A stretch of 64,000 bases of DNA from an uncultured Acidobacteriota bacterium (GTDB lineage: Bacteria; Acidobacteriota; UBA6911): NCBI GenBank assembly GCA_963843575.1, contig CAWJKZ010000013.1, positions 32,001-96,000 of the forward strand, read 5' to 3'. The notes under the pieces are model-generated. The model was not told the origin of the DNA and searched no databases. It worked only from the letters and a program-made list of their open reading frames with translations. Below are positions 36,045-53,016 of the stretch, in pieces (position 1 is the stretch's first letter; each line of letters starts with the position of its first letter). Position numbers and translations under genes: made by a program.

Positions 36045-36404
36045 GGGATCAGCCCCTCCTCGGCTTGCCCTGCAGCCGTTACCCACCACCGTTGGGCGAC
36101 CTCACGCATCCCGGTACGCTCCGATGCACACCCGCGGGTTATTCCACCCAGAGATGGTCATTTAACCAAGTTTACTATAATTCAGGTTTACTATCACGTG
36201 TGTTTCACATGTGCACGATCTGACTATTTTACTTCATCCGGTTCATTTCAGTGAAGTTATTCGACTTCGCAGATAGGGCGTCCCGCCGGGGCTCGTTGGA
36301 AGGACATGTGCATGGGTCTTCGTGACAACTCTTGGAGGCCAGTACGCGAACCCCGTTCATCAGCGGCCGTCCCACCCAATCGTCCACACCCAGGAGGATC
36401 TGCC

Positions 36405-36986
36405 ATGGGGGCAGTGCAACAAACCGTTCTTTATGAACAGGCGATGGACCCGCACCTGCTCGAGGAGATCTGCTCCACGCCCGGGGGCGCCAAGATAAAG
36501 GACTGCATCCAGTGCGGCACCTGCAGCGGATCGTGCCCGGTGTCCTGGGCGATGGAGGAGACGCCGCGTCAGATCTTCGCGATGATCCGGGCCGGAATGA
36601 AGGAAAGACTCCTCGACACTCTTACGATCTGGACGTGCGCGTCCTGCTACCAGTGCGCGAGCCGCTGCCCGCAGCAGATCAAGATCACCGACGTCATGTA
36701 TGCGCTCAAGCGCATGGCCATCCGCGAAAACCGCACCCGCAGCAAGAAAGCCCGGCTGTTCGCCCAGGAATTCGCGGCGGTGGTCAACCGGCACGGGCGG
36801 GGCCGAGAGACGGAGCTGATGGTGCGCTACATGCTGGCCACCAACCCTCTCGGCGCGTTGTCCGCGGCCCCTGTCGGCATCAACCTGTTCACGCGCGGCC
36901 GGCTTCCGCTCGGCGGGGGATCGGTGCGCGACATCGCAGGCCTCCGGAAGATCATCGCCAAGGCCGGTGAACTGGGAGGTGAGTGA
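36405..36986 (+). CDS. hdrC: heterodisulfide reductase subunit C
   Basis: AGGAGG RBS; CIQCGTCSGSCP and WTCASCYQCASRCP. Confidence 0.9.
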   Translation: MGAVQQTVLYEQAMDPHLLEEICSTPGGAKIKDCIQCGTCSGSCPVSWAMEETPRQIFAMIRAGMKERLLDTLTIWTCASCYQCASRCPQQIKITDVMYALKRMAIRENRTRSKKARLFAQEFAAVVNRHGRGRETELMVRYMLATNPLGALSAAPVGINLFTRGRLPLGGGSVRDIAGLRKIIAKAGELGGE

Positions 36987-37864
36987 TGCGGTACGCGTAT
37001 TTTCCGGGTTGTTCGCTCGATTCCACGGCACGACCTTACGGCGAGTCGGTTGAGGCGGTCGCTTCCGCACTGGGCATGGAACTGGTCGAGGTAGACGACT
37101 GGAACTGTTGCGGCGCGACCGCCTACATGTGCGTAAACGAGATCCTCTCGTTCAGCCTGAACGCCCGCAACCTGTGCCAGGCCTCCAAGACGGGAGGGCC
37201 GCTGGTCACGCCGTGCAGCGCCTGCTTTACGAACCTGCGCAAGACCGAGAAGTATCTGGCAGACTTCCCGGACATAAAGAAGAAGGTCGACGCTGCCCTG
37301 GCCGAGGCGGGTTTGCGCTACGACGGCGGCATCGAGACGAAGCACCTGTTACAGGTGGTCGTCGAGGATGTCGGGCTGGAGCGCCTGAAGAGCGCGGTGA
37401 AAAAGCCGCTAGCAGGGTTGCGGGTCGCACCGTACTACGGCTGCCAGATCGCCAGGCCGTACGGCATCGAAGACGACAGCGACGACCCGACGATGCTCGA
37501 TCGCCTCCTGGCCGGGCTTGGGGCGACGCCCACCCACTTCCCGATGAAGACGGTCTGCTGCGGCGGCTCCCTCATCGGAACCCGCGAGGAAGTCGCCCTG
37601 CGGCTCTGCCGTAACCTGCTCATGTGCGCCCAGCAGGATGCGGCCGACTGTATCGCGGTCGCCTGCCCCGTGTGTCAACTCAACCTGGACGCCTACCAGG
37701 CGGCGATCAACAAGTCCTACGGGACGGACTTCAACATCCCTGTCGTCTATTTCACCCAGCTGATCGGTCTCGCGCTGGGGCTCGAGTCCGACGCCCTCGG
37801 ACTGCAGCGCTGCATCGTGCCGGCGACGAGAGTTTTCGCCCGGTTTGCACAGGAGACGCGATGA
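36983..37864 (+). CDS. hdrB: heterodisulfide reductase subunit B
   Basis: YFPGCSL, DWNCCGA, YYGCQ, CCGG, CPVCQLNLD (two CCG domains). Confidence 0.93.
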   Translation: MMRYAYFPGCSLDSTARPYGESVEAVASALGMELVEVDDWNCCGATAYMCVNEILSFSLNARNLCQASKTGGPLVTPCSACFTNLRKTEKYLADFPDIKKKVDAALAEAGLRYDGGIETKHLLQVVVEDVGLERLKSAVKKPLAGLRVAPYYGCQIARPYGIEDDSDDPTMLDRLLAGLGATPTHFPMKTVCCGGSLIGTREEVALRLCRNLLMCAQQDAADCIAVACPVCQLNLDAYQAAINKSYGTDFNIPVVYFTQLIGLALGLESDALGLQRCIVPATRVFARFAQETR

Positions 37865-39086: not shown

Positions 39087-39518
39087 ATGGAGCGCGAGGA
39101 GTTCGAGTCCAGCTACCAGGTCGCCGGCCGCGACTTCACGAACGCCGGGAGGGTCTCGACCGACATTAAGGACACGCTCAAGCGCCTCGGCGTCGCCCCG
39201 TCGATCATGCGCAGGGTCGCGATCGCCTGCTACGAGGCGGAGATGAACATAGTCATGTACGCCCATCGCGGGCGGATGGCCCTCCGGGTCAGCCCCCGGG
39301 TGGTGACCATCGAAGCCGCCGACGAAGGACCGGGCATCCAGGACATTGAGCTTGCGATGCAGGAGGGTTATTCGACGGCGACGCCGGAGATGAGAGAAAT
39401 GGGGTTCGGCGCCGGGATGGGGCTGCCGAACATCCGCAGAAACAGCGACGAACTCGAGATCAGTTCCACCGTCGGCCGGGGCACACGGCTGGTGATCCGC
39501 GTGCTCCAATCCGCGTGA
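39087..39518 (+). CDS. anti-sigma factor / Ser-Thr kinase (RsbT-like HATPase)
   Basis: YEAEMNIV, DEGPGI, EGYSTA, GFGAGMGLPNI. Confidence 0.9.
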   Translation: MEREEFESSYQVAGRDFTNAGRVSTDIKDTLKRLGVAPSIMRRVAIACYEAEMNIVMYAHRGRMALRVSPRVVTIEAADEGPGIQDIELAMQEGYSTATPEMREMGFGAGMGLPNIRRNSDELEISSTVGRGTRLVIRVLQSA

Positions 39519-40852
39519 GGAAGAACGTGGCCGCTCAGTACCATCATTCGTTGCGGTTCGATTCCGAGAATTGCGACGGCTGCATGTCCTGTCTGCGTGC
39601 CTGCCCGACGGCAGCGGTGCGGGTGCGCAACGGCCACGCGGTCAAGCTGGCGGACCGGTGCATCGATTGCGGCGAGTGCATCCGGGTCTGCCCCCGCGGC
39701 GCCATCGTTCCCCTCACAAACCACATGGCCGACCTGTCGAAGTTCGAGTGCACGGTGGCCGTGCCCTCGCCGGCCCTCTACGCCCAGTTCGACGCCGATG
39801 TGTCGCCGGGCGCCATCTTCGCCGCCCTCCGCCAGTGCGGCTTTGACGATGTGGAGTGCCTGTCGCCGGCCTGCGATTCCGTCAGCGCGGCCACCGAGAT
39901 GTACCTCAACGCGTACCGGGGCCAGTATCCTCTTATCTCGTCGTTCTGCCCGACCGTGGTCCGGCTAGTCCAGGTGAAGTATCCCGAACTGGTGGACCAA
40001 CTGCTGCCGGTACTGGCTCCGCGCGAGGTTTCCGCCCGGGACGCCAAGGCCCGCAAATCGGCCGAGACCGGCCTTGCCCCCGATCAGATTGGCGCGGTGT
40101 ACATCACCCCGTGCCCCGGCAAGATGGTGGCCATCCTGGAACACCCCGGCATGCAGAGGTCATATCTTGACACCGCCATCTCCATCAGCGACCTCTTCCA
40201 GACCCTTGCGGCGGCAGTCGCCGGTATCGACGATTCCGAGGCGTACCGGCAGGCCGCCGAAACCGCCTCGGGTGTGAGCTGGGCCTTCATGGGCGGTTTG
40301 CCGCGTTCGCTCCCCGCCGAGAACACCCTCGCGGTCGCCGGCCTCCCCAACGTGATCCGCATCCTGGACGACGTCGAAAAGGGGAAGCTTCGGAGGTACT
40401 CGTTCATCGACTGCCACGCCTGCGCCGAGGGGTGTGTGGGCGGATGCCTCACGGTGGAAAACCCGTACGTGGCGCGCGGCAAGATGATCATGTTGTGGCA
40501 GACACTCCCTGCCGGCCCGGCGCTTGACCGCGACGACGTGGAGCGGCGCTACCGCGAAGGCGCGTTCCTGATGGACGAGCCCCTGGCGAGCCGCCCGCTC
40601 AGGCCGCTCGACGAGGACATCTCGCGTGCCATCGCCAAGATGAAGCAGAGGGACCGGATCGTGGCGACCCTGCCCGGGATCGACTGCGGCGCCTGCGGCG
40701 CTCCGTCTTGCCGGGCCTTTGCCGAGGACGTGGTCCTCGGGGACGCCGGGGAAGAGTCGTGCGTCTTCTTTCTCCAGCAGGAGCTCACCGACAGGATCGA
40801 AGGGCTCGCACGCCTCGTCCAGGGCAAGCGCCCCGATGGAGGCCTGAAATGA
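39515..40852 (+). CDS. [FeFe]-hydrogenase-like Fe-S protein (degenerate H-cluster motifs, C-terminal FeS domain)
   Basis: Two N-terminal ferredoxin motifs; SSFCP / TPCPGK / CAEGCVGG; LPGIDCGACGAPSC. Confidence 0.85.
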   Translation: MRKNVAAQYHHSLRFDSENCDGCMSCLRACPTAAVRVRNGHAVKLADRCIDCGECIRVCPRGAIVPLTNHMADLSKFECTVAVPSPALYAQFDADVSPGAIFAALRQCGFDDVECLSPACDSVSAATEMYLNAYRGQYPLISSFCPTVVRLVQVKYPELVDQLLPVLAPREVSARDAKARKSAETGLAPDQIGAVYITPCPGKMVAILEHPGMQRSYLDTAISISDLFQTLAAAVAGIDDSEAYRQAAETASGVSWAFMGGLPRSLPAENTLAVAGLPNVIRILDDVEKGKLRRYSFIDCHACAEGCVGGCLTVENPYVARGKMIMLWQTLPAGPALDRDDVERRYREGAFLMDEPLASRPLRPLDEDISRAIAKMKQRDRIVATLPGIDCGACGAPSCRAFAEDVVLGDAGEESCVFFLQQELTDRIEGLARLVQGKRPDGGLK

Positions 40853-41202
40853 ACGTCGAACAGCTTGCAGCGCAGCTCGGTGCGGAAGTGGTATGCGGGG
40901 GGGCTCGGGCCGCGAGCCGCGAGATCCTCGGCGGCTACGCCTCGGACCTGCTTTCGGACGTGATGGCCAATAGCTGCGAAGGGGACCTCTGGGTGACGCT
41001 GCAGCGGCACGTCAATGTCGTGGCGGTGGCCCAGCTCAAAGGGCTGGCCGGGATCCTCCTGGTGAACGGGCGCCGGCCCGAGCCGGCCGCAGCCGAACGC
41101 GCGGACGTGGAGGGCATTCCGATCGTCACCACGGGATTGCCGGCGTTTGAGGTGATCGGCCGCCTTTGCGGGATGGGCATCGGGGGAAGGAGGTCGGGCT
41201 GA
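40849..41202 (+). CDS. DRTGG-domain protein
   Basis: GGYASDLLSDVMAN, WVTLQRHVNVVAVA. Confidence 0.85.
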   Translation: MNVEQLAAQLGAEVVCGGARAASREILGGYASDLLSDVMANSCEGDLWVTLQRHVNVVAVAQLKGLAGILLVNGRRPEPAAAERADVEGIPIVTTGLPAFEVIGRLCGMGIGGRRSG

Positions 41203-41204
41203 GA

Positions 41205-42482
41205 GTGTTCATGCTGGACACCCACGTGCACACGTGCCTGTCGCCCTGCGCGGAACTGGAGATGCACCCGGCCGCCGTGGCCGGGGCGGCGGTCTCCTCC
41301 GGGCTGGATGCCGTCGCGGTGTGCGATCACAACTCGGCCGAGAATGCGGCCGCCGTGGCGCGCGCCGCGCACAGGTCCGGCCTCGCGGTGATTCCCGGCA
41401 TGGAGATCACCAGCGCCGAGGAGGTTCACGTCCTCGGCCTCTGTCCGGACCTCGAGGCGGCGCTGGAGCTGCAGGCACGTGTTTACCGCTGTCTGCCCGG
41501 CCGCAACGACGCGCGCGCATTCGGCATGCAGGTGGTGGCCAACGAAGACGAGGAGGTGCTCGGCTTCAACGACCACCTCCTGGCCGGCGCGACCACGATG
41601 GCCGTCGACGCCGTGGTCGACGCGATTCACCGGGTGGACGGCCTCGCCGTGGCGTCGCACGTCGACCGCGAGGCTTTTGGAATCTTCGGGCAGCTCGGCA
41701 TGATCCCGGCCGACCTCCGGTTGGATGCCCTGGAGGTCTCGCGACGCACCCCCCTGCCGTCCGCGCGTGCGTCGTTCGCCCCCGGCGGGGAGTGGACTAT
41801 CCTGTGCGCCTCCGATGCGCACGAGCCGAAGGATGTCGGGCAGGCGGCCACGTACATGCTGCTGCAGGAGCCGACCGTCGCGGAACTGCGCCGCGCTTTC
41901 GCCGGCGAAGGGGGACGGACGGTGCTCGGCGGAGGAATGCCGATGGAGGACTTGGCACTGCACATCCTGGACATCGCACGCAACAGCATCGATGCGGGGG
42001 CGACGGAGATCGAGATCGTCATCGAGGAAGACCTCGCCGGCAACCGGCTCACGATCGAGCTGCGCGACAACGGGCGCGGCATGAGCCCGGAAACACTCTC
42101 CCGGGCCGCGGATCCCTTCTTTACCACGCGCACCACGCGCCGGGTCGGCATGGGGCTGCCGCTGCTCGCCCAGGCCGCCCGCAGCGCCGGAGGCGGGCTC
42201 TCGCTGGAGTCGCAACCCGGGCGCGGGACGAGCGTGCGCGCGGTTTTCGAGCACGGCCACATCGATAGGGCACCCCTGGGAGACCTGGAAACAACCCTGA
42301 TGGTGCTGCTCGCAGGTCATTCGGAGATCGACATCAGGTTCCGGCACAGAGTAGACCACGCGGAGTACGAGCTCGACTCCGCCGACCTGCGCGCTGCCGG
42401 GATCGACGTGGGCTCCCCCGAGGGCCTGATGGCGGTGCGCGGCGTCATACGACAGGGAGAGAGATCGTTGTCCAGGAGCTGA
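41205..42482 (+). CDS. PHP phosphoesterase fused to HATPase (kinase-like) domain
   Basis: DTHVHTCLSPC, CDHNS, SDAH, then in frame MEDLALHILDIARNS...DNGRGM...DPFFTTRTTRRVGMG; start uncertain. Confidence 0.8.
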   Translation: MFMLDTHVHTCLSPCAELEMHPAAVAGAAVSSGLDAVAVCDHNSAENAAAVARAAHRSGLAVIPGMEITSAEEVHVLGLCPDLEAALELQARVYRCLPGRNDARAFGMQVVANEDEEVLGFNDHLLAGATTMAVDAVVDAIHRVDGLAVASHVDREAFGIFGQLGMIPADLRLDALEVSRRTPLPSARASFAPGGEWTILCASDAHEPKDVGQAATYMLLQEPTVAELRRAFAGEGGRTVLGGGMPMEDLALHILDIARNSIDAGATEIEIVIEEDLAGNRLTIELRDNGRGMSPETLSRAADPFFTTRTTRRVGMGLPLLAQAARSAGGGLSLESQPGRGTSVRAVFEHGHIDRAPLGDLETTLMVLLAGHSEIDIRFRHRVDHAEYELDSADLRAAGIDVGSPEGLMAVRGVIRQGERSLSRS

Positions 42483-42539
42483 ACCGGGCGTGGTCGAGGG
42501 AACGCGAGACGCGGACAGGAACTGACTTTGGGAGGAAAC

Positions 42540-43028
42540 ATGGTCGACGTCACAAGGGTTCGGGAAATCGTCGGTCGTCACGGCGGTAAACGGGAGCACA
42601 TGATCGCCATCCTGCTCGACTGCCAGGAAGAATACTGCTATCTGCCGCGGGAGGTTCTCGAGGAGCTGTCGGTCCAGATCGACACGCCGCTGACCTCCGT
42701 GCTTTCGATCGCCACGTTCTTCCGTGCCTTCAGCCTCAAGCCGGTGGGCCGCCACCAGGTCCACGTCTGCATGGGCACCGCCTGCAACATCCAGGGGGGG
42801 CCCCGGCTGGTCGAGGCGCTCGAACGCGAGCTGAAGATCAAGAAGGGCGAAACCACGCCGGACATGCAGTTCAGCCTCGACACGGTCAACTGTGTCGGGT
42901 GCTGCGGGCTCGCCCCGGTCATCACCGTCGGACAGGACGTGCACGGAAAACTGAAGCAGTCTTCCATCCCGAGGATTCTGAAGAAGTACAGGTCAAAGGA
43001 GGCAAGCGATGCCGAGACTGTCCATTGA
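42540..43028 (+). CDS. nuoE: NuoE/HydC-like [2Fe-2S] subunit
   Basis: GGAGG RBS; VCMGTAC ... NCVGCCGLAP. Confidence 0.88.
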   Translation: MVDVTRVREIVGRHGGKREHMIAILLDCQEEYCYLPREVLEELSVQIDTPLTSVLSIATFFRAFSLKPVGRHQVHVCMGTACNIQGGPRLVEALERELKIKKGETTPDMQFSLDTVNCVGCCGLAPVITVGQDVHGKLKQSSIPRILKKYRSKEASDAETVH

Positions 43029-43469: not shown

Positions 43470-45309
43470 ATGGCATTCCGCACAAATGTTCTGGTTTGCG
43501 CAGGGACCGGGTGCGTGTCCGGGAACTCCTTTGCGACGGCCCGGGCGCTGGAGACCGAGGTGAAGAAACGGGGCCTGGGAGACGAAATCCAGGTGATACG
43601 CACAGGGTGCCAGGGCTTCTGCGCCGAGGGACCCATCGTGATTGTGCAGCCGGACGGCGTCTTCTACTGCGGCGTGGCCGCCAAGGACGCGCCGTACCTG
43701 GTGGAGGAACATTTCCTGAAAGGCCGGCCGGTGCAGAGGCTGATGTACTCGCCGCCGAAGGAAAAGAGCCCCATCCCGGCGCTCAAGGAGATTCCCTTCT
43801 TCGCCAAGCAGAAGCTGGTCGTGCTGCGCAACCGCGGGGCCATCGACCCGGAGCGCATCGACGACTACATCGCCGTGGACGGTTACACCGCACTGGTCAA
43901 AGCCCTGAGAGATGACGCCCGAGCAGATCATCCGGGAGATCAAGAAGTCGGGGCTGCGCGGGCGCGGCGGCGGCGGCTTTCCGACCGGCATCAAGTGGGA
44001 GACCTGCCGCCACGCAGCGAAACAGCGCAACGAGGAACCCGTCGTCGTCTGCAACGCCGACGAAGGCGACCCCGGGGCCTTCATGGACCGCAGCATCATC
44101 GAGAGCGACCCGCACTCCGTCCTCGAGGGGATGATCATCGGCGCGCGGGCGATCGGCTGCAAAGAGGGCTTCGTCTACATCCGGCACGAGTATCCCATTG
44201 CGCGCGAACGCCTGCTCAAGGCCATCGAGCAGGCGCGCGACTACGGCCTCCTCGGCAAGGGCATCCTGGGCTCCGAAATGGATTTCGACGTCGAGATCGT
44301 CCAGGGGGCGGGCGCATTCGTCTGCGGCGAATCGACGGCTCTCATGGCTTCGCTGGAGGGGAAGGCCGGCGAACCGCGCGCCAAGTACATCCACACGGTG
44401 GAGTACGGGTACAAGAACCGGCCGACGAACCTGAACAACGTCGAGACCTGGGCCAACGTCCCGCTGATCATCAGCCGCGGCGCCGAGTGGTTCGCGTCGA
44501 TGGGGACCGGCGAGGTCAGCGAGAATCCCTGGAACGGAAGCAGCGGGACCAAGGTGTTCTCGATGGTCGGCAAGGTGAACAACACCGGGCTGATCGAGGT
44601 CCCGATGGGCCTGACGCTGCGCGAGATCGTCTTCGACATTGGCGGCGGCATCGCGGGCGGCAGCAAATTCAAGGCGGTGCAGACCGGTGGTCCTTCCGGA
44701 GGGTGCCTCCCGGAAGAGCTGCTGGACATGCCGGTCGACTTCGACAGCCTGACCGAAGCGGGCTCGATGATGGGGTCCGGGGGCATGATCGTCATGGACG
44801 ACCAGACCTGCATGGTCGACGTGGCGCGCTACTTCATCGCCTTCCTGACCGAGGAGTCGTGCGGCAAGTGCGTGCCGTGCCGTGAGGGGTTGCGCACCTC
44901 GCTCGACACCCTCACCCGCATCTCGGAAGGCAAGGGGACCGAACACGACATCGAGCTCCTGTACGAGATCGGCGCCGTCATGCAGGACTGCTGTCTGTGC
45001 GCGCTGGGCACGTCCGCCCCGAACCCGGTGCTGTCGACGCTGCGCTATTTCAAGGAGGAGTACGACGCCCACATCAAGGACCACGTCTGCCCGGCGGGCG
45101 TCTGCAAGGACCTGATCGAGTACAGGATCGACGCGGAGAAGTGCGACGGGTGCCACGCCTGTGTGAAAGGCTGCTCCCCCGCGGCCATCGGGGGCGCGGT
45201 CAAGGAGAAGCACTCCATCGACGGGGACAAGTGCATCAAGTGCGGCGCCTGCCTTGAGGTGTGCAAGCGCGACGCGATCGTGAAAGTTCCGAGGAGTCAT
45301 GCGGCATGA
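43470..45309 (+). CDS. nuoF: NuoF/HydB-like FMN/NADH subunit (one frameshift near 43908, likely a sequencing error)
   Basis: N-terminal [76 protein letters not shown], two C-terminal ferredoxin motifs. Confidence 0.88.
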
Positions 45310-47064
45310 AGACCATCAAAGTGAAGATCAACGGGATCGAAGCCGAGGCTGCGGACCGCACCCCCATCCTGAACATCGCCGAAAAACTGGGGATCAAGAT
45401 CCCCACGCTGTGCCACCACCCGATCCTGGAACCCTATGGCGTGTGCCGCGTGTGCACCGTCGAGGTCCGCTCGGGCAAACGCGTCCGGATGGTGACGGCC
45501 TGCAATTACCCGGCGACGAACGGCATCGAGGTGCTGACCGATTCCGAGCGGGTCCGGCGCGACCGTAAGCTGATCATCGAGTGGCTGATGTCGCGCTGCG
45601 GGCACGTGCCGGTGATCGAGCAGCTCGCGGCCGAGTACGGCATCACGGAACCGCGGTTCGGACGCGGCGACGACGACTGCATCCTGTGCGGGCTCTGCGT
45701 GCGCGTCTGCTCCGACGTCGTCGGCGCCAATGTCCTCGGGTTCTTCAACCGCGGCACGACTCGCGAGGTCTCGACCGCCTACGGCGAGACCTCGGACAAA
45801 TGCATCGCCTGCGGGGCGTGTGCCCACGTCTGCCCCACAGGCGCAATCCGGATCGAGGACGACGCGGCCCTGGTCCAGAAAGAGCTCCCGATGGGGCCGC
45901 TCACCCCGATCGGCATCCCGTTCATGCAGGCGGTGCCGCACCAGCCGGTGATCGACCGCGATTCGTGCATTCACTTCAAGACCGGCGCGTGCAAGGTGTG
46001 CGAAAAGGTCTGCGAGGTGAAGGCGATCGACCACAGCCAGCAGGACCGCGTCGAGGAACTCGAGGTCGGGGCCGTCGTGCTGGCCACCGGCTTCCAGACC
46101 TTCGACGCCAGGAAGATCCCCGAGTACGGCTACGGCAGGTTCGACAACGTCCTGACCGGCATGGAGTTCGAAAAAATGAACAGCGCTTCGGGCTCGACCG
46201 GCGGCCGGATCCTCATGGCCGACGGCAAGGCCCCGAAGTCGGTGGGGATCATTCACTGCGTCGGCAGCCGCGACCAGCGCCACAACAAGCACTGCTCGCG
46301 CGTCTGCTGCATGTACGCGCTGAAGTTCGCACACCTGATCAAGGAGAAGACCGAGGCCGAGGTCTACAACTTCTACATCGACATGCGCTGCTTCGGAAAG
46401 GGCTACGAGGAGTTCTATCACCGCCTGCTGGAGGAGGGAGTGCGGTTCATCCGGGGCCGGGCCGCGTCGGTCACGGACTTCCCGTTGAACGAACACGAGC
46501 GCGGCAAGCTGATCATCCGCGTCGAGGACACGCTGCTCGGCCAGGTGCGGCGCATCCCGGTCGACATGGTCGTGCTGGCCACAGGGCTCGAAGCCGCAGA
46601 AGGCGCGGCCGAACTCGCCCGCACCTTCCACATCAGCTGCCAGCGGCGGTTTCTTCACCGAGCGGCACCCGAAGCTCGCCCCGGTGTCGACGGCCACGGA
46701 CGGGATCTACATCGCCGGCGCGTGCCAGGGGCCGAAGGACATCCCCGACACGGTCGCACAGGCCTCCGCGGCGGCGTCGCAGGTGCAGGCGCTGATGGCC
46801 AAGGGGGAGATCGAGGTCGAGTCCGCCACGAGCATCGTGGATGCCGAGAAGTGCGCCGGGTGCAGGATCTGCAACACCCTCTGCTCGCTCTCGGCCATCA
46901 GCTTCGACGAGGAGAGGCACGTGTCGGTGATCAACGACGTGCTCTGCAAAGGGTGCGGCACCTGCGCTGCGGCATGCCCGAGCGCTGCCATCATCGCGCG
47001 GCACTTCACCGACGAGCAGCTGTTCGCCGAAATAGAAGGAGCTCTGTATGACGTTCGAGCCTAA
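45306..47064 (+). CDS. hdrA: fusion of NuoG/HydA-N-like FeS domain with the C-terminal half of HdrA (frameshift near 46645)
   Basis: IPTLCHH..CRVC..C ([2Fe-2S]) and two ferredoxin motifs, then [36 protein letters not shown]; after the shift [17 protein letters not shown] and a C-terminal 2x[4Fe-4S]. Confidence 0.85.
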
Positions 47065-47485
47065 GATCGTGGGCATTCTCTGCAACTGGTGCTCGTACAC
47101 GGGCGCGGACCTGGCCGGAACCGCCCGCATCAAGTACGCCCCGAACGTGCGCATGATGCGTGTCATGTGCTCCGGCCGAGTCGACCCGACCTTCGTGCTG
47201 AAGGCGTTCGCCGACGGGGCCGACGGGGTGCTCGTCGCCGGGTGCCACCCGGGAGACTGCCACTACATCGACGGGAACTACAAGACCCTGCGCCGCATGG
47301 CGCTGCTGAAGAAGCTGCTCGCCGACTACGGTATCGAGCCGGAACGGTTCCGGCTGGAGTGGGTGTCCGCCTCGGAGGGCGACCGCTGGGCCGAGGTCGT
47401 CAACGGCATCACCGAAGACGTCCGCAGGCTCGGTCCGGCGAAGTTCAAGTCGAAAGGGAAAAAACGAGCCGCCCCGGCGGCCTAG
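47048..47485 (+). CDS. mvhD: methyl-viologen-reducing hydrogenase delta subunit
   Basis: CNWCSYTGADLAG, VMCSGRVDP, GCHPGDCHY, WVSASEG. Confidence 0.95.
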   Translation: MTFEPKIVGILCNWCSYTGADLAGTARIKYAPNVRMMRVMCSGRVDPTFVLKAFADGADGVLVAGCHPGDCHYIDGNYKTLRRMALLKKLLADYGIEPERFRLEWVSASEGDRWAEVVNGITEDVRRLGPAKFKSKGKKRAAPAA

Positions 47486-47670: not shown

Positions 47671-48627
47671 ATGGCGAAACTGAAATTGGCGTCCTACTGG
47701 GCGGCCGCATGCGGGGGATGCGACGTGGGGATCCTGGACCTGCACGAGAAGATCCTGGACCTCGCGGCAGCCGCGGACATCGTCTTCTGGCCCATCGCGC
47801 TCGATTTCAAGTACGAGGATGTCGAGGCCATGCCGGACGGCCACATCGACGTGACCCTGTTTCACGGGGCCGTCCGCAACTCCGAGAACGAGCATCTGGC
47901 GCGGCTGCTGCGCGCCAAGTCCAAGGTCCTGGTCGCATTCGGGACCTGCGCCCACATCGGCGGCATACCGGGCCTGGCCAACCTGTTCGACAAGAAGTCG
48001 ATCTTTCAGCGTGTCTACCACGACTCCCCCTCGACGGTGAACCCCGACGGCGTCGAACCCCAGCCTCGCTCCAGGGTGCCGGAAGGTGAAATTACGATCC
48101 CGGAGTTCTACGACACGGTCCGGTCCCTGGACCAGGTGGTCGACGTCGAGTACTATGTCCCCGGCTGCCCGCCGACCCCGAAGCAGATCTGGAAGGTGGT
48201 GGAGACGATCGTGTCGGGGCAACTGCCACCGCCCGGCGCCGTCATCGGCGCGTCGGAAAAGACGCAGTGCGACGAGTGCACGCGCAAGAAGAGCGAAAAG
48301 AAGATCACCGGATTCAAACGGATCGCGACCGCACAGCCCGATCCGGACACCTGTTTTCTCGACCAGGGTTTCCTGTGCGTCGGCCCCGTGACCCGGGGCG
48401 GATGCGACACCCGCTGCCAGCTGTCGGGAGTCGCCTGCCGCGGCTGCTATGGCCCGCCGCCGGGAGTGCTCGACCAGGGAGCAAAGGCGATCTCGGCCAT
48501 CGCCTCCGTGATCGAGGCCAAGGACGAGGCTGAGGTAGAACGCATAATCGCAGAGATCCCCGACCCGCTCCGGAGCTTTAACCGGTTCGGCATCCCGGGA
48601 TCCTTATTGGTGAGGAAAGCATTATGA
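47671..48627 (+). CDS. mvhG: group 3c [NiFe]-hydrogenase small subunit
   Basis: GGAGG RBS; AACGGC, AFGTCA, PGCPP, CVGPVTRGGC, CRGCYGP. Confidence 0.92.
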   Translation: MAKLKLASYWAAACGGCDVGILDLHEKILDLAAAADIVFWPIALDFKYEDVEAMPDGHIDVTLFHGAVRNSENEHLARLLRAKSKVLVAFGTCAHIGGIPGLANLFDKKSIFQRVYHDSPSTVNPDGVEPQPRSRVPEGEITIPEFYDTVRSLDQVVDVEYYVPGCPPTPKQIWKVVETIVSGQLPPPGAVIGASEKTQCDECTRKKSEKKITGFKRIATAQPDPDTCFLDQGFLCVGPVTRGGCDTRCQLSGVACRGCYGPPPGVLDQGAKAISAIASVIEAKDEAEVERIIAEIPDPLRSFNRFGIPGSLLVRKAL

Positions 48628-50084
48628 AGCGCATTTCGATTGATCCCATCACGCGGCTGGAGGGGCACGGCAAGATCGACATCTTCCTGGCCGACGACGG
48701 CAGCGTCGCAAACTGCTACTTCCAGGTGCCCGAGCTGCGCGGCTTCGAGAAGTTCGTCGAAGGCATGCCGGCCGAGGAAGTCCCGCGCGTGGTGTCGCGC
48801 ATCTGCGGCGTCTGACCGGCCGCACACCATTTGGCCTCGGGTAAGGCCATAGATGCAGTCTACAAGGTCGATCCGCCGGTCACGGCGAAGAAGCTGCGCG
48901 AGCTCTACTACAGCGCTCACTTCATGCACAGCCACATAGCCCACTTCTACGCGCTCGCCGCCCCCGACTTCGTCGTGGGCCCGGACGCCGATCCCGCGAA
49001 GCGGAACATCCTCGGCATCGTGGAAAAAGTCGGGGTCCCCGTGGCGGCCGAAGTCCTCAAACACCGCGCCATCGCGCAGGACATCCAGATCATGGTGGGG
49101 GGCAGGTCGACCCACCCCGTCTGGACTCTGCCGGGCGGCGTGTCCAAGGGGATCACCGACGCTCAGCGGCTGGAGATCGTCGAGAAGGCGAAATCGTGCG
49201 TGGAGTTCGCCAGGTTCTCCCTGAAGCTGTTCGAGGACATCGTACTCCAGAACAAGACCTACCTCGACCTGGTCCTCTCGGACATCTACGAGCTCGACTC
49301 GTACTGGATCGGGACCGTCGACGAGAAAAACCGGGTGAACTTCTACCAGGGCGAGCACCGCGTCGTGGATCAGGACGCCAAGGAAGTCTTCCGGTACAAG
49401 GACCACGAGTACCTCGATTTCATCTCGGAACGGGTCGAGCAGTTCAGCTACCTGAAGTTCCCCTTCCTGAAGAAGATCGGCTGGAAGGGGCTCGTAGCCG
49501 GACGTGACTCGGGCGTGTACCAGGCGACCCCGCTCTCGCGGCTCAACGCGGCCGACGGGATGGCGACGCCGCTGGCGCAGGCCGAGTACGAGAAGATGTA
49601 CAAAACCCTCGGCGGCAAACCTGTGAAAAAGCTCCTGGCCACGCACTGGGCGCGGCTGGTCGAGTTGCTGTACGCGGCCGAGCGGATGCTCGAGCTGGCC
49701 CAGGACCCGCAGGTCGCGTCGACCGACATCCGCACCCTCCCGACGGCGGTCCCGGAAGAGGGCATCGGGATCGTCGAGGCGCCGCGTGGAATCCTGACCC
49801 ATCACTACAAGACAGACCGGAACGGGCTCATCACCGAAGCGAACCTCGTCGTGGGAACGACGAATAATCATGCGCCGATCTCGCTGGCGATCAAGCAGGC
49901 CGCCCAGCGGCTCATCCAGCCCGGAAAGGCGATCGGGCAGGATCTCCTCAACATGGTGGAGATGGCGTTCCGGATCTTTGACCCGTGCTTCTCGTGCGCG
50001 ACCCACTCCCTGCCGGGGGAAATGCCCCTCGTCGTGGAGGTCCACGCCGCCGACGGCACCGTGGTCCACCGCGTTTCGCGGTAG
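48624..50084 (+). CDS. mvhA: group 3c [NiFe]-hydrogenase large subunit with in-frame UGA (putative selenocysteine) in the L1 motif
   Basis: IDPITRLEGH, LRGFEKF, RICGV-TGA(48813-48815)-PAAHH continues in frame to EAPRG and RIFDPCFSCATH plus a cleavable tail. Confidence 0.9.
48828..48855 (+). promoter_or_regulatory. putative bacterial SECIS hairpin
   Basis: CATTTGGCCT-CGGGTA-AGGCCA(TA)GATG. The stem begins 12 nt and the G-containing loop 22 nt after the UGA. Confidence 0.7.
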
Positions 50085-50234: not shown

Positions 50235-50732
50235 ATGCGAACGCGGGTAATTGGTCTGGGCAACAGCCTCCTGTCCGACGACGGCGTCGGGATTTACGCG
50301 GCCCGGGAAGTGGCGCGCCGACTCGCCGGGACCGCTCGCGCGGATCCGGTGGACGTAACCGAGTCGGAAGTGGCGGGCTTCGCCCTGATGGAGCTGATGG
50401 CCGGCTGGGACCGCGTCGTGCTCGTCGACTCCGTTGTGTTCGAAGGAGTCGAACCGGGTACGGTCCTGCAGCTGGCGGCCGACGACCTGCACACCTCTCT
50501 CCGGCTGCGTTCCGTGCACGATATCGACCTCCCTACCGCCCTCGAACTCGGCCGTCGCCTCGGCCTGAGTATGCCGTCCGATGTCGTGATCTTCGGCATC
50601 CAGGTCCTGGATCCGTACACCCTGGGGGAAACCCTCACGGAACCTGCAGCCGCCGGACTGCGCGCCGCGACAGACCTGATCCTCCGGGAATTAATTCCCG
50701 CCGACTGCCCCAATTTCCTGCCGCCCTTGTAG
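50235..50732 (+). CDS. hydrogenase maturation protease
   Basis: IGLGNSLLSDDGVG, VVLVDS, SVHD. Confidence 0.92.
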   Translation: MRTRVIGLGNSLLSDDGVGIYAAREVARRLAGTARADPVDVTESEVAGFALMELMAGWDRVVLVDSVVFEGVEPGTVLQLAADDLHTSLRLRSVHDIDLPTALELGRRLGLSMPSDVVIFGIQVLDPYTLGETLTEPAAAGLRAATDLILRELIPADCPNFLPPL

Positions 50733-52033: not shown

Positions 52034-52125
52034 AATCCGGACCCACGTGGCTCGAAGAATACGCAGAAACACCACAATCCTGAGCGGCCGCCGTGCTAGA
52101 TTCAACCCCCGAGGAGGAGGCAAGC

Positions 52126-53016
52126 ATGACGGCGACACTGATCAGGGGCGCCGCAATTGCGGCGTCGATCCGGGAAGAACTCAAGCGCGAGGTCGACAGC
52201 CTTAAACAGAAGCACGGTGTCACGCCGGGCCTGGTGACGGTGCTGGTGGGGCACAATCCGGCGTCCGAGAGCTATGTTCGGGCGAAGCAAAAGACCGCGC
52301 ACGAGCTCGAGTTTCACTCGATCCAGGAGGACCGGCCCCAGGACATGACCCAGGAAAGCCTCCTGGAGCTCGTGCGGAGCTACAATGCCGATCCTGCGAT
52401 TCACGGCATTCTCGTCCAGCTGCCGCTCCCTCCCCACATCAACGAGACACGGGTGTTGTATGCCCTGGACCCCCGCAAGGACGTCGACGCGTTCCACCCC
52501 GTGAACGTCGGCAAGCTCGTGATCGGCGAAGCCGACTACCTCCCGTGCACGCCGGCCGGCATCCAGCAGCTCCTCGTCCGCTCCGGTGTCAAAGTGGAAG
52601 GCGCGGAGGTCGTGGTCGTCGGGCGTTCGAACATCGTGGGGAAGCCGATCGCGAACATCCTGATGCAGAAAGCGAAGGGGGCCAACGCCACCGTAACCGT
52701 GTGCCACACCCGCACGCGCGACATCGCGTCACACTGCCGCCGCGCCGACATCCTGATCGTCGCCGCAGGGGTACCGGAGTACGTGCGCGGGGAGATGATC
52801 AAGCCCGGCGCCGTGGTGATCGACGTGGGGGTGAACGAGGTGGGAAAAACCGCCGAGGGGAAACGCATCCTCAAGGGGGACGTGGCGTTCGAAGAAGCCG
52901 TCCAGGTTGCCGGGGCCATCACGCCCGTGCCCGGCGGCGTAGGCCCGATGACGATCACCATGCTCATGCGCAACACCGTCAGGGCCTGCAAGGTCTGGAA
53001 CGGGATCGCCGACTAG
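52126..53016 (+). CDS. folD: bifunctional methylene-THF dehydrogenase/cyclohydrolase
   Basis: HGILVQLPLP, KDVDAFHP, PCTPAG, GRSNIVGKP, TPVPGGVGPMT. Confidence 0.97.
   Translation: MTATLIRGAAIAASIREELKREVDSLKQKHGVTPGLVTVLVGHNPASESYVRAKQKTAHELEFHSIQEDRPQDMTQESLLELVRSYNADPAIHGILVQLPLPPHINETRVLYALDPRKDVDAFHPVNVGKLVIGEADYLPCTPAGIQQLLVRSGVKVEGAEVVVVGRSNIVGKPIANILMQKAKGANATVTVCHTRTRDIASHCRRADILIVAAGVPEYVRGEMIKPGAVVIDVGVNEVGKTAEGKRILKGDVAFEEAVQVAGAITPVPGGVGPMTITMLMRNTVRACKVWNGIAD

Follow-up and report, generated by a model that had tools for sequence, protein, structure and literature searches.

The mvhA gene and its in-frame TGA codon

The gene described here, mvhA, lies in a stretch of 64,000 nucleotides (the window) from an uncultured Acidobacteriota bacterium (assembly GCA_963843575.1, contig CAWJKZ010000013.1, positions 32,001 to 96,000 of the forward strand), whose genome is referred to below as G000. 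It occupies positions 48624..50084 of the window on the plus strand and encodes 486 residues when its single in-frame TGA, at 48813-48815 in the context SRICGV[TGA]PAAHH, is read as selenocysteine (Sec). It codes for the large subunit of a [NiFe]-hydrogenase, full-length and of the group 3c MvhA type. An earlier examination of the window (the original prediction) had placed the TGA at the second Cys of the N-terminal metal-binding motif (L1), and the codon was indeed found there in a 486-codon open reading frame (ORF), with 422 intact codons after the TGA. Our reading, to which we assign a probability of roughly 85% on comparative grounds, is that SelB and a selenocysteine insertion sequence (SECIS) would direct the insertion of Sec64 at the position that bridges Ni and Fe.

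The protein matched the family PF00374 with 130.9 bits (cut-off 25.8). The best NCBIfam model was that of VhuA (NF041785), with 400.4 bits against an equivalog cut-off of 800, which places the window protein among MvhA-like bacterial relatives rather than VhuA equivalogs. Among solved structures the best match was 5odc_F, the MvhA of Methanothermococcus thermolithotrophicus (371 bits, spanning residues 2-466), in which the second Cys of RICGIC is the counterpart of residue 64 of RICGV[U]P. Based on this alignment the metal ligands are Cys61, residue 64 (the UGA), Cys455 and Cys458. In the L1 motif (R59-I-C61-G-V-U64, 48798..48815, plus strand) Cys61 aligns to the terminal Ni ligand and residue 64 to the ligand bridging Ni and Fe. 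These roles follow established [NiFe] structures, where the bridge between the two metals involves the second member of each CxxC pair; in Hyd-1, according to the available passages of PMC8020662, C76 and C576 are terminal, and C79 and C579 bridge Ni and Fe. The C-terminal motif (L2, DPC455FSC458ATH461, residues 453-461, 49980..50006, plus strand) is an ordinary Cys form with TGC codons and not DPUxxC, as had been predicted.

With DPCFSC at its C-terminus, the protein falls outside the classical [NiFeSe] hydrogenases, in which Sec comes first in this motif. It belongs to the CXXU type (Cys-X-X-Sec), having C61-G-V-U64 aligned on the second Cys of RICGIC, and it carries the group 3c large-subunit motifs RxCGxC and DPCxxCxxH, with UGA at the second N-terminal position. 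Orthologs from related genomes were 84-85% identical to it over the full length.

Recurrence of the TGA in homologous genes

A TGA in the same column was present in 30 genomes, namely the window, four relatives, 23 named genome loci and two genomes of a phylum sample. The first three groups make up the 28 close Sec forms, and L143 and L145 are the two distant ones. Eight of the 41 related genomes (G000 counted) hold an mvhA ortholog at 84-91% identity, and TGA and Cys alternate in the bridging column of these close orthologs: five have TGA (G000, G001, G006, G011 and G021) and three have TGC or TGT (G004, G014 and G017). Among the 80 named genome loci the column held TGA in 23 and Cys in 57. 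The TGA forms span Acidobacteriota, Chloroflexota/Dehalococcoidia, Krumholzibacteriota, Latescibacterota and Bacillota. Those nearest to the window came from Acidobacteriota metagenome-assembled genomes (MAGs), at 83-85% identity, and the Bacillota forms include Ca. Desulfopertinax cowenii, a Peptococcaceae MAG and the cultured Desulfotruncus alcoholivorax DSM 16058. One further locus, L144 of genome G295, had been flagged as having one TGA and was really a frameshifted Cys form.

The locus of D. alcoholivorax (L076, NZ_AUMW01000038.1) combines the CXXU form with the same hairpin as in the window (described below). As the strain is cultured and publicly deposited, it makes the bridging Sec testable at the bench.

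The original prediction had also expected annotation to fail at such a gene. When the 63-residue N-terminal piece was searched against a large protein collection, 641 matches of 34-111 residues came up, and among the 120 matches listed 101 stop at CG[V/I], directly before the bridging column. Gene callers therefore very often truncate these genes, as had been expected, and hydrogenase surveys undercount or misfile the CXXU genes that the callers split.

A TGA at such a position could also be an assembly or sequencing error, or mvhA could be a pseudogene. The G000 assembly does have frameshifts in SelA, SelD and HypD, and the mvhA ortholog of G001 lies in three pieces; the errors seen are, however, indels and not substitutions. 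The same TGA recurs in the 28 close and 2 distant genomes, which come from different assemblies, as well as in at least 101 clusters of database proteins. Each of the 25 full-length Sec forms reads through to DPCxxC without a further stop, and the part of the window gene after the TGA is not only intact but 84-85% identical to the orthologs. In addition, a nearly identical 370-nt DNA contig from a public run (X1) covers the site with two differences from the window, none at 48813-48815 among those listed, and contigs X19 and X20 of relatives, from RNA libraries possibly containing DNA, also bridge the TGA. All three are Logan assembled contigs, the best run sharing 0.21 of the sampled words. 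They are compatible with an authentic codon and not proof of it, and stretches that such contigs do not cover carry no weight either way. From these comparisons we regard an error or a pseudogene as excluded for practical purposes, with next to no probability left to it.

A conserved hairpin after the UGA

A SECIS-like hairpin was located at 48832..48849 on the plus strand. Its stem is formed by UGGCCU (48832-48837) and AGGCCA (48844-48849) and its loop is CGGGUA (48838-48843), with 16 nt from the UGA to the hairpin start and 22 nt from the UGA to the loop. When the U of the UGA is counted as position 1, the six pairs 20-37, 21-36, 22-35, 23-34, 24-33 and 25-32 were formed in 28/28 close Sec forms. 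The consensus of these forms reads UGGCCU in the 5' arm, CG[G/U]G[U/C]A in the loop and AGGCC[A/G] in the 3' arm, and GGCC-N8-GGCC stood at a fixed offset in every one of them. The loop was CGGGUA in 21 forms, CGUGUA in four and CGUGCA in three, with an invariant G at loop position 2 (28/28). Five of the stem pairs did not vary, and pair 20-37 was U-A in 12 forms and U.G in 16. In comparison, all six pairs were canonical in 11/81 Cys forms, and the six pairs together with the G at loop position 2 were found in 4/81.

The usual UGA-to-loop spacing in bSECISearch is 16-37 nt. With its 6-bp stem, 22-nt spacing and G at loop position 2, the hairpin has the features of a bacterial SECIS, and its loop G and spacing fit the Sec elements of Group 4 hydrogenases, for which the available text of PMC13582414 describes, downstream of the UGA, a stem-loop whose first or second loop base is G. 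L145, a distant Sec form of the same phylum (49% identity; locus G306:C3, with TGA in the bridging column), folds at the same offset into another hairpin, one of 8 bp with a folding energy of -17.4 kcal/mol, in which both partners of pair 22-35 are changed relative to the main clade.

The codons that form the hairpin had been described as rare or AT-ending for this gene and had been taken as a sign of selection on RNA structure. The description of the codons holds: in the window mvhA the GGT of the hairpin is the sole GGT among 33 Gly codons, and ATA accounts for 2 of 30 Ile codons, TTG for 2 of 43 Leu codons and CAT for 3 of 18 His codons, with a G+C fraction at third codon positions (GC3) of 0.89. 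The peptide ASGKA was encoded uniformly as GCC-TCG-GGT-AAG-GCC in 18 Sec forms, whereas in 13 Cys forms with this peptide every third position varied and GGT was used in 3/13; the sequences compared are related, so that the comparison does not amount to a formal test. The synonymous sites of the hairpin are thus frozen in Sec forms and variable in Cys forms with the same peptide.

The UGA could also mainly terminate translation, either as a selenium-dependent gate or within a split gene that yields a 63-residue peptide and a 417-residue protein restarted at TTG 48831. The ORF lists give exactly these two pieces, Methanococcus is known to have split large subunits (VhuA/VhuU), and the NCBIfam model of VhuU matches window residues 438-462. 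Sec decoding is generally incomplete, and some termination is therefore expected. The TTG lies, however, in the conserved hairpin, and the codon is ATG, CTG or TTG in other Sec forms, which means that a start codon is not conserved at this site. The strict link between TGA and hairpin is a prediction of Sec insertion, and we know of no precedent for a gene that is divided inside a CxxC metal-binding motif, between its two cysteines. Gating by selenium supply would be compatible with Sec insertion and not opposed to it. On this evidence, a UGA that acts mainly as a stop seems quite improbable.

Selenocysteine machinery of the source genome

The genome G000 (6.68 Mb, 27 contigs, 88% complete) encodes tRNA-Sec, SelB and SelD. 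The tRNA-Sec scored 74.6 bits and has the anticodon UCA, an 8-bp acceptor stem and G73; no other tRNA with a UCA anticodon was found among 48 tRNAs. SelB scored 373 bits, above its cut-off. SelD has its own canonical Sec codon (SCAG[TGA]ASKL) and one frameshift, located beside a run of C. Among the machinery genes that the original prediction had pointed to, these three were present, but SelA was frameshifted and had no piece above the cut-off.

In the relatives set, tRNA-Sec was present in 5/5 genomes with a Sec form (G000 counted). It was found in 38/41 relatives altogether, including the Cys-form holders G004, G014 and G017, so its co-occurrence with the Sec form is uninformative. G034 had a tRNA-Sec match and no MvhA match and enters the genome tallies only. 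Formate dehydrogenase was considered as a second selenoprotein marker and rejected, the matches to TIGR01553 being weak, partial and without TGA. The only MvhD of G000, the copy in the operon, contains no TGA. In the window TGA is the stop codon of 8/11 ORFs neighbouring mvhA, mvhG included; UGA is accordingly not reassigned genome-wide, and the recoding is site-specific.

The UGA might alternatively be recoded to Cys or another standard residue, through a Cys-charged UCA tRNA of the tRNA-ReC (selC*) type or through near-cognate read-through. UGA is possibly read as Cys in genomes with tRNA-ReC, as the available passages of PMC13582414 indicate, and a second UCA tRNA could be missed in a genome that is 88% complete. 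The one UCA tRNA that was found among the 48 has, however, the shape of a tRNA-Sec and the discriminator G73. G73 marks serine identity and not cysteine identity. The other match above the tRNA-Sec cut-off was an ordinary tRNA-Ser(UGA), and SelD of the same genome has UGA at its canonical Sec site. As no second UCA tRNA was found in G000, recoding of the tRNA-ReC type is argued against, and we consider a standard residue at position 64 improbable.

Several observations weigh against Sec insertion. SelA-like pieces were found in at least four frame pieces at C8:2469-3523, on a 17-kb contig, with a best score of 116 bits and none above the cut-off, and SelD and HypD each carry a single frameshift; the SelA pieces could be an assembly artefact or a truly broken gene. 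As to the hairpin, the distant TGA form L143 (G265:C57) had no convincing hairpin, and the Cys form L034 (G004:C16, TGC) keeps the complete hairpin together with the ASGKA codons, so that the hairpin alone is no proof of recoding; L034 looks like a recent Sec-to-Cys conversion. Whereas the UGA/Cys alternation expected among homologs was found (23 TGA and 57 Cys of 80), no compensatory covariation was found in the hairpin within the main clade, where pair 20-37 alone varies, and on one side only; covariation is absent there because the hairpin core is invariant. The 81-nt fold was thermodynamically ordinary (z = -0.79; 42/200 shuffles folded at least as well), which means that the support for the hairpin comes from comparison and not from energy. 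A scan of 48700-48950 against Rfam in E-value mode gave two chance-level matches (13 and 12.6 bits), none on the hairpin. Finally, the original prediction had drawn a longer stem. Its core at 48832-48849, with the loop 22 nt from the UGA, is real, but the outer-stem pairs 19-38 and 18-39 (CAU with GAUG) were each formed in only 9/28 Sec forms. An alternative pair 18-40 was formed in 28/28, and this is weak evidence since position 40 is an invariant G.

The breaks mentioned above were located at G000:C8:2469-3523 (selA), C13:704799-705723 (selD) and C21:15011-16091 (hypD), each gene being split over at least two reading frames, and in G001, a genome of the same genus, the mvhA ortholog is spread over three frame pieces. 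Assembly indel errors fit the frameshifts in selA, selD and hypD, and together with the G001 case these breaks make ORF-based annotation of G000 unreliable.

Phylogeny of the Sec and Cys forms

A maximum-likelihood tree of 106 large subunits was made with the quick search of IQ-TREE under LG+G4, with 12 distant rows as outgroup. Four loci in which the C-terminal motif was missing (L042, L049, L058 and L064) were left out. All 25 Sec rows fell inside one well-supported clade of 70 rows. The tree requires at least nine changes between Sec and Cys, of which six are forced by the starred branches. When the labels were shuffled on the tree the mean was 22.7 changes, and none of 500 shuffles was as low as the number observed. 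The picture suggested by these data is one of a single or a few origins, which would have been followed by repeated loss or regain and by transfer between phyla.

In an even phylum sample of 401 genomes, 96 had an MvhA-like N-terminus, and TGA was found at the bridging column in 4/96. A further locus from the same bacterial family as the window (L043, G012:C56:15310-16701, minus strand) encodes an MvhA-like paralog of 43% identity with the classical C-terminal motif DP[TGA]LSC. N-terminal and C-terminal Sec hydrogenases therefore both occur in this lineage.

These results can be extended to a broader proposal, to which we would give even odds. The Sec forms would belong to a large group 3c MvhA clade of Acidobacteriota, Dehalococcoidia, Krumholzibacteriota/Latescibacterota and Bacillota with a selenolate bridge between Ni and Fe, in which a near-invariant SECIS, GGCCUCGGGUAAGGCC, dictates the peptide ASGKA/ASCKA and in which Sec and Cys were exchanged at least 6-9 times. 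This clade would be an uncatalogued selenoprotein class; it may be common in soils and sediments, and its catalysis may be unlike that of the terminal-Sec enzymes.

Operon and neighbouring genes

All genes described here lie on the plus strand of the window. The small-subunit gene mvhG (47671..48627) directly precedes mvhA, and its TGA stop overlaps the mvhA start (ATGA). Upstream of it lie mvhD of the FlpD family (47048..47485, PF02662 185.7 bits), a gene in which 2Fe-2S and 4Fe-4S domains are fused to an HdrA-like flavoprotein core (NuoG/HdrA-like, 45261..47051), a NuoF-like FMN/NADH-binding subunit (43912..45309, PF01512 149.5 bits and PF10589 106.4 bits) and a NuoE-like thioredoxin-like [2Fe-2S] subunit (42528..43028, PF01257 155.1 bits). 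Downstream of mvhA lies a hydrogenase maturation endopeptidase (50235..50732, TIGR00072 98.1 bits, with G000:C13:82247-82693 corresponding to window 50247-50693). MvhG, MvhD and the maturation protease thus adjoin mvhA, and HypD is present in G000. The order NuoE-NuoF-NuoG/HdrA-MvhD-MvhG-MvhA is that of the Acidobacteriota-type cluster, and among the related loci with enough upstream flank the order MvhD-MvhG-MvhA is common to Sec and Cys forms.

The Complex1_51K domain of the NuoF-like ORF begins at residue 10. A 471-aa ORF in another frame (43470-44885) overlaps this ORF and had no family match, and the true N-terminus of the NuoF-like protein may have been lost to a frameshift. HdrC-like (4Fe-4S dicluster) and HdrB-like (CCG domain) genes were found at 36306-37864, some 8-10 kb upstream of mvhDGA. 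Most relatives outside the acidobacteria have their HdrC/B-like genes no more than about 4 kb upstream of mvhD, separated from it by an HdrA-like gene. Closer to the operon, a [FeFe]-hydrogenase-like gene (Fe_hyd_lg_C and a putative Fe-S domain, 39515-40852) is followed by one for a PHP-domain/HATPase_c protein (41166-42482), and this pair looks like a sensory or regulatory hydrogenase module beside the [NiFeSe] operon. Shortly downstream of the operon a gene for FolD (methylene-tetrahydrofolate dehydrogenase/cyclohydrolase) lies at 52093-53016. Elsewhere in the genome, G000:C24:489902-491790 is another locus that resembles a [NiFe] large subunit, accompanied by a maturation protease of its own; the locus has 44% identity over the N-terminal 120 residues and an open frame of just 288 aa, and may be frameshifted.

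Discussion

We read the UGA of mvhA as a codon for Sec64 because Sec and Cys alternate in its column, the hairpin is present in 28/28 Sec forms, the downstream frame is intact and the genome has Sec machinery; the original prediction of Sec at the bridging Cys of L1 is supported by the same comparative evidence. In the mechanism that we propose, SelB-GTP with Sec-tRNA(Sec) would bind the hairpin of stem UGGCCU/AGGCCA and loop CGGGUA during translation of mvhA, and this binding would deliver Sec to the ribosome at UGA 48813-48815. The product would be the full-length MvhA of 486 residues, with Sec64 replacing the second Cys of RxCGxC. By homology with solved [NiFe] enzymes, the mature site would be Ni(Cys61)(Cys455)(mu-Sec64)(mu-Cys458)Fe(CO)(CN)2, and the enzyme would be a [NiFeSe] hydrogenase of the CXXU type and not of the classical DPUxxC type. 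Hyp proteins and the endopeptidase encoded just downstream would carry out its maturation. Its predicted partners are MvhG, MvhD and the flavoprotein module with NuoE-, NuoF- and HdrA-like parts, and the enzyme would act in the cytoplasm, probably as a hydrogenase linked to NAD(P)H and ferredoxin that is electron-bifurcating or confurcating. The insertion of selenium, the bridging geometry and the physiological electron partners are what we infer here from sequence. As a mechanism this is an ordinary case of Sec/Cys exchange, at an active-site position whose natural selenium form is uncharacterised.

To our knowledge, selenium is a terminal Ni ligand in all characterised natural [NiFeSe] hydrogenases. 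Their O2 tolerance and high output of H2 are attributed to this terminal position. If the present reading is true, a natural enzyme with a bridging selenium would be a test of how the position of the ligand tunes the Ni-Fe site, and the effects of a bridging selenium have so far been probed only in an engineered E. coli variant. Natural hydrogenases with bridging Sec are a rare variant that the literature records on the basis of sequences alone, and no natural enzyme of this kind has ever been studied. The comparative data presented here turn this variant from a purported oddity into a well-supported and widespread clade.

The classical [NiFeSe] enzymes are represented by the Group 1a HysAB of Desulfovibrio vulgaris and Desulfomicrobium baculatum (PDB 2wpn and 1cc1) and by the Group 3 Vhu/Fru of Methanococcus. 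They share with the window MvhA the PF00374 family and the replacement of one Ni ligand by UGA-encoded Sec, and matches among them were 5jsu_B (138.6 bits) and 1cc1_L (112 bits). They differ from it in the position of Sec, which is the first, terminal Ni ligand of DPUxxC in the classical enzymes, whereas the window protein has DPCFSC and Sec in second place of the N-terminal motif.

Among the best structural relatives were MvhADG-HdrABC (5odc, 371 bits) and the NiFe hydrogenase 7t2r (333 bits), and MvhD and MvhG are adjacent in the window. We take 7t2r to be the electron-bifurcating NiFe-HydABCSL of Acetomicrobium mobile, which resembles the upstream NuoE/NuoF-like module of the window. Unlike the window MvhA, both enzymes have four cysteine ligands, and the HdrB and HdrC genes of the window, at their distance of about 8-10 kb, are not adjacent as in this comparison.

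The nearest functional precedent is the engineered variant C79U of E. coli Hyd-1 (Evans et al. 2021, PMC8020662). In the available passages of that paper, C79U retained 13% of the native H2 oxidation activity, the highest of four Cys-to-Sec variants, and its KM for H2 was lowered. The variant resembles the window protein in having Sec at the N-terminal bridging cysteine, and it was active. It differs in that Sec was introduced artificially, by the UAG/EF-Tu route, into a Group 1d enzyme that tolerates O2, and its properties may not transfer to a natural group 3c enzyme.

The original prediction had implied that a hydrogenase of this kind was new, and in this it was anticipated. The available text of PMC8020662 mentions natural substitutions of bridging cysteines, which it terms purported, and that of PMC13582414 states, citing Baltazar et al. 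2011, that Sec is C-terminal in Groups 1 and 3 with the exception of N-terminal CXXU in two Group 1 sequences and one Group 3 sequence, whose Sec residues were predicted in silico to bridge Ni and Fe. In the part available, the selenoprotein table of PMC13188914 lists MvhA/VhuA/VhuU solely as UxxC, and PMC2702500 gives a Sec-containing MvhA2DG in Desulfobacterium autotrophicum, in passages that do not state the position of Sec. No description of a group 3c CXXU clade was found in the literature searched. The CXXU kind is thus already known from sequences and the window gene is a new member of it; the searched literature appears not to describe how large and how widespread the group 3c CXXU clade is.

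The closest parallel is provided by Takano et al. 2026 (PMC13582414), who predicted 47 Group 4 [NiFeSe] sequences in silico, 27 of them of the CXXU type. As far as the available passages describe them, these resemble the window clade in the position of the ligand, the G of the stem-loop, the same mosaic pattern of Sec and Cys forms and the unchanged gene clusters, and SECIS-like remnants in some Cys forms are common to both sets. In contrast to that set, which consists of membrane-bound Group 4 enzymes, the window enzyme is of the cytoplasmic group 3c MvhA type, and its clade goes far beyond the one Group 3 sequence that the same passages cite.

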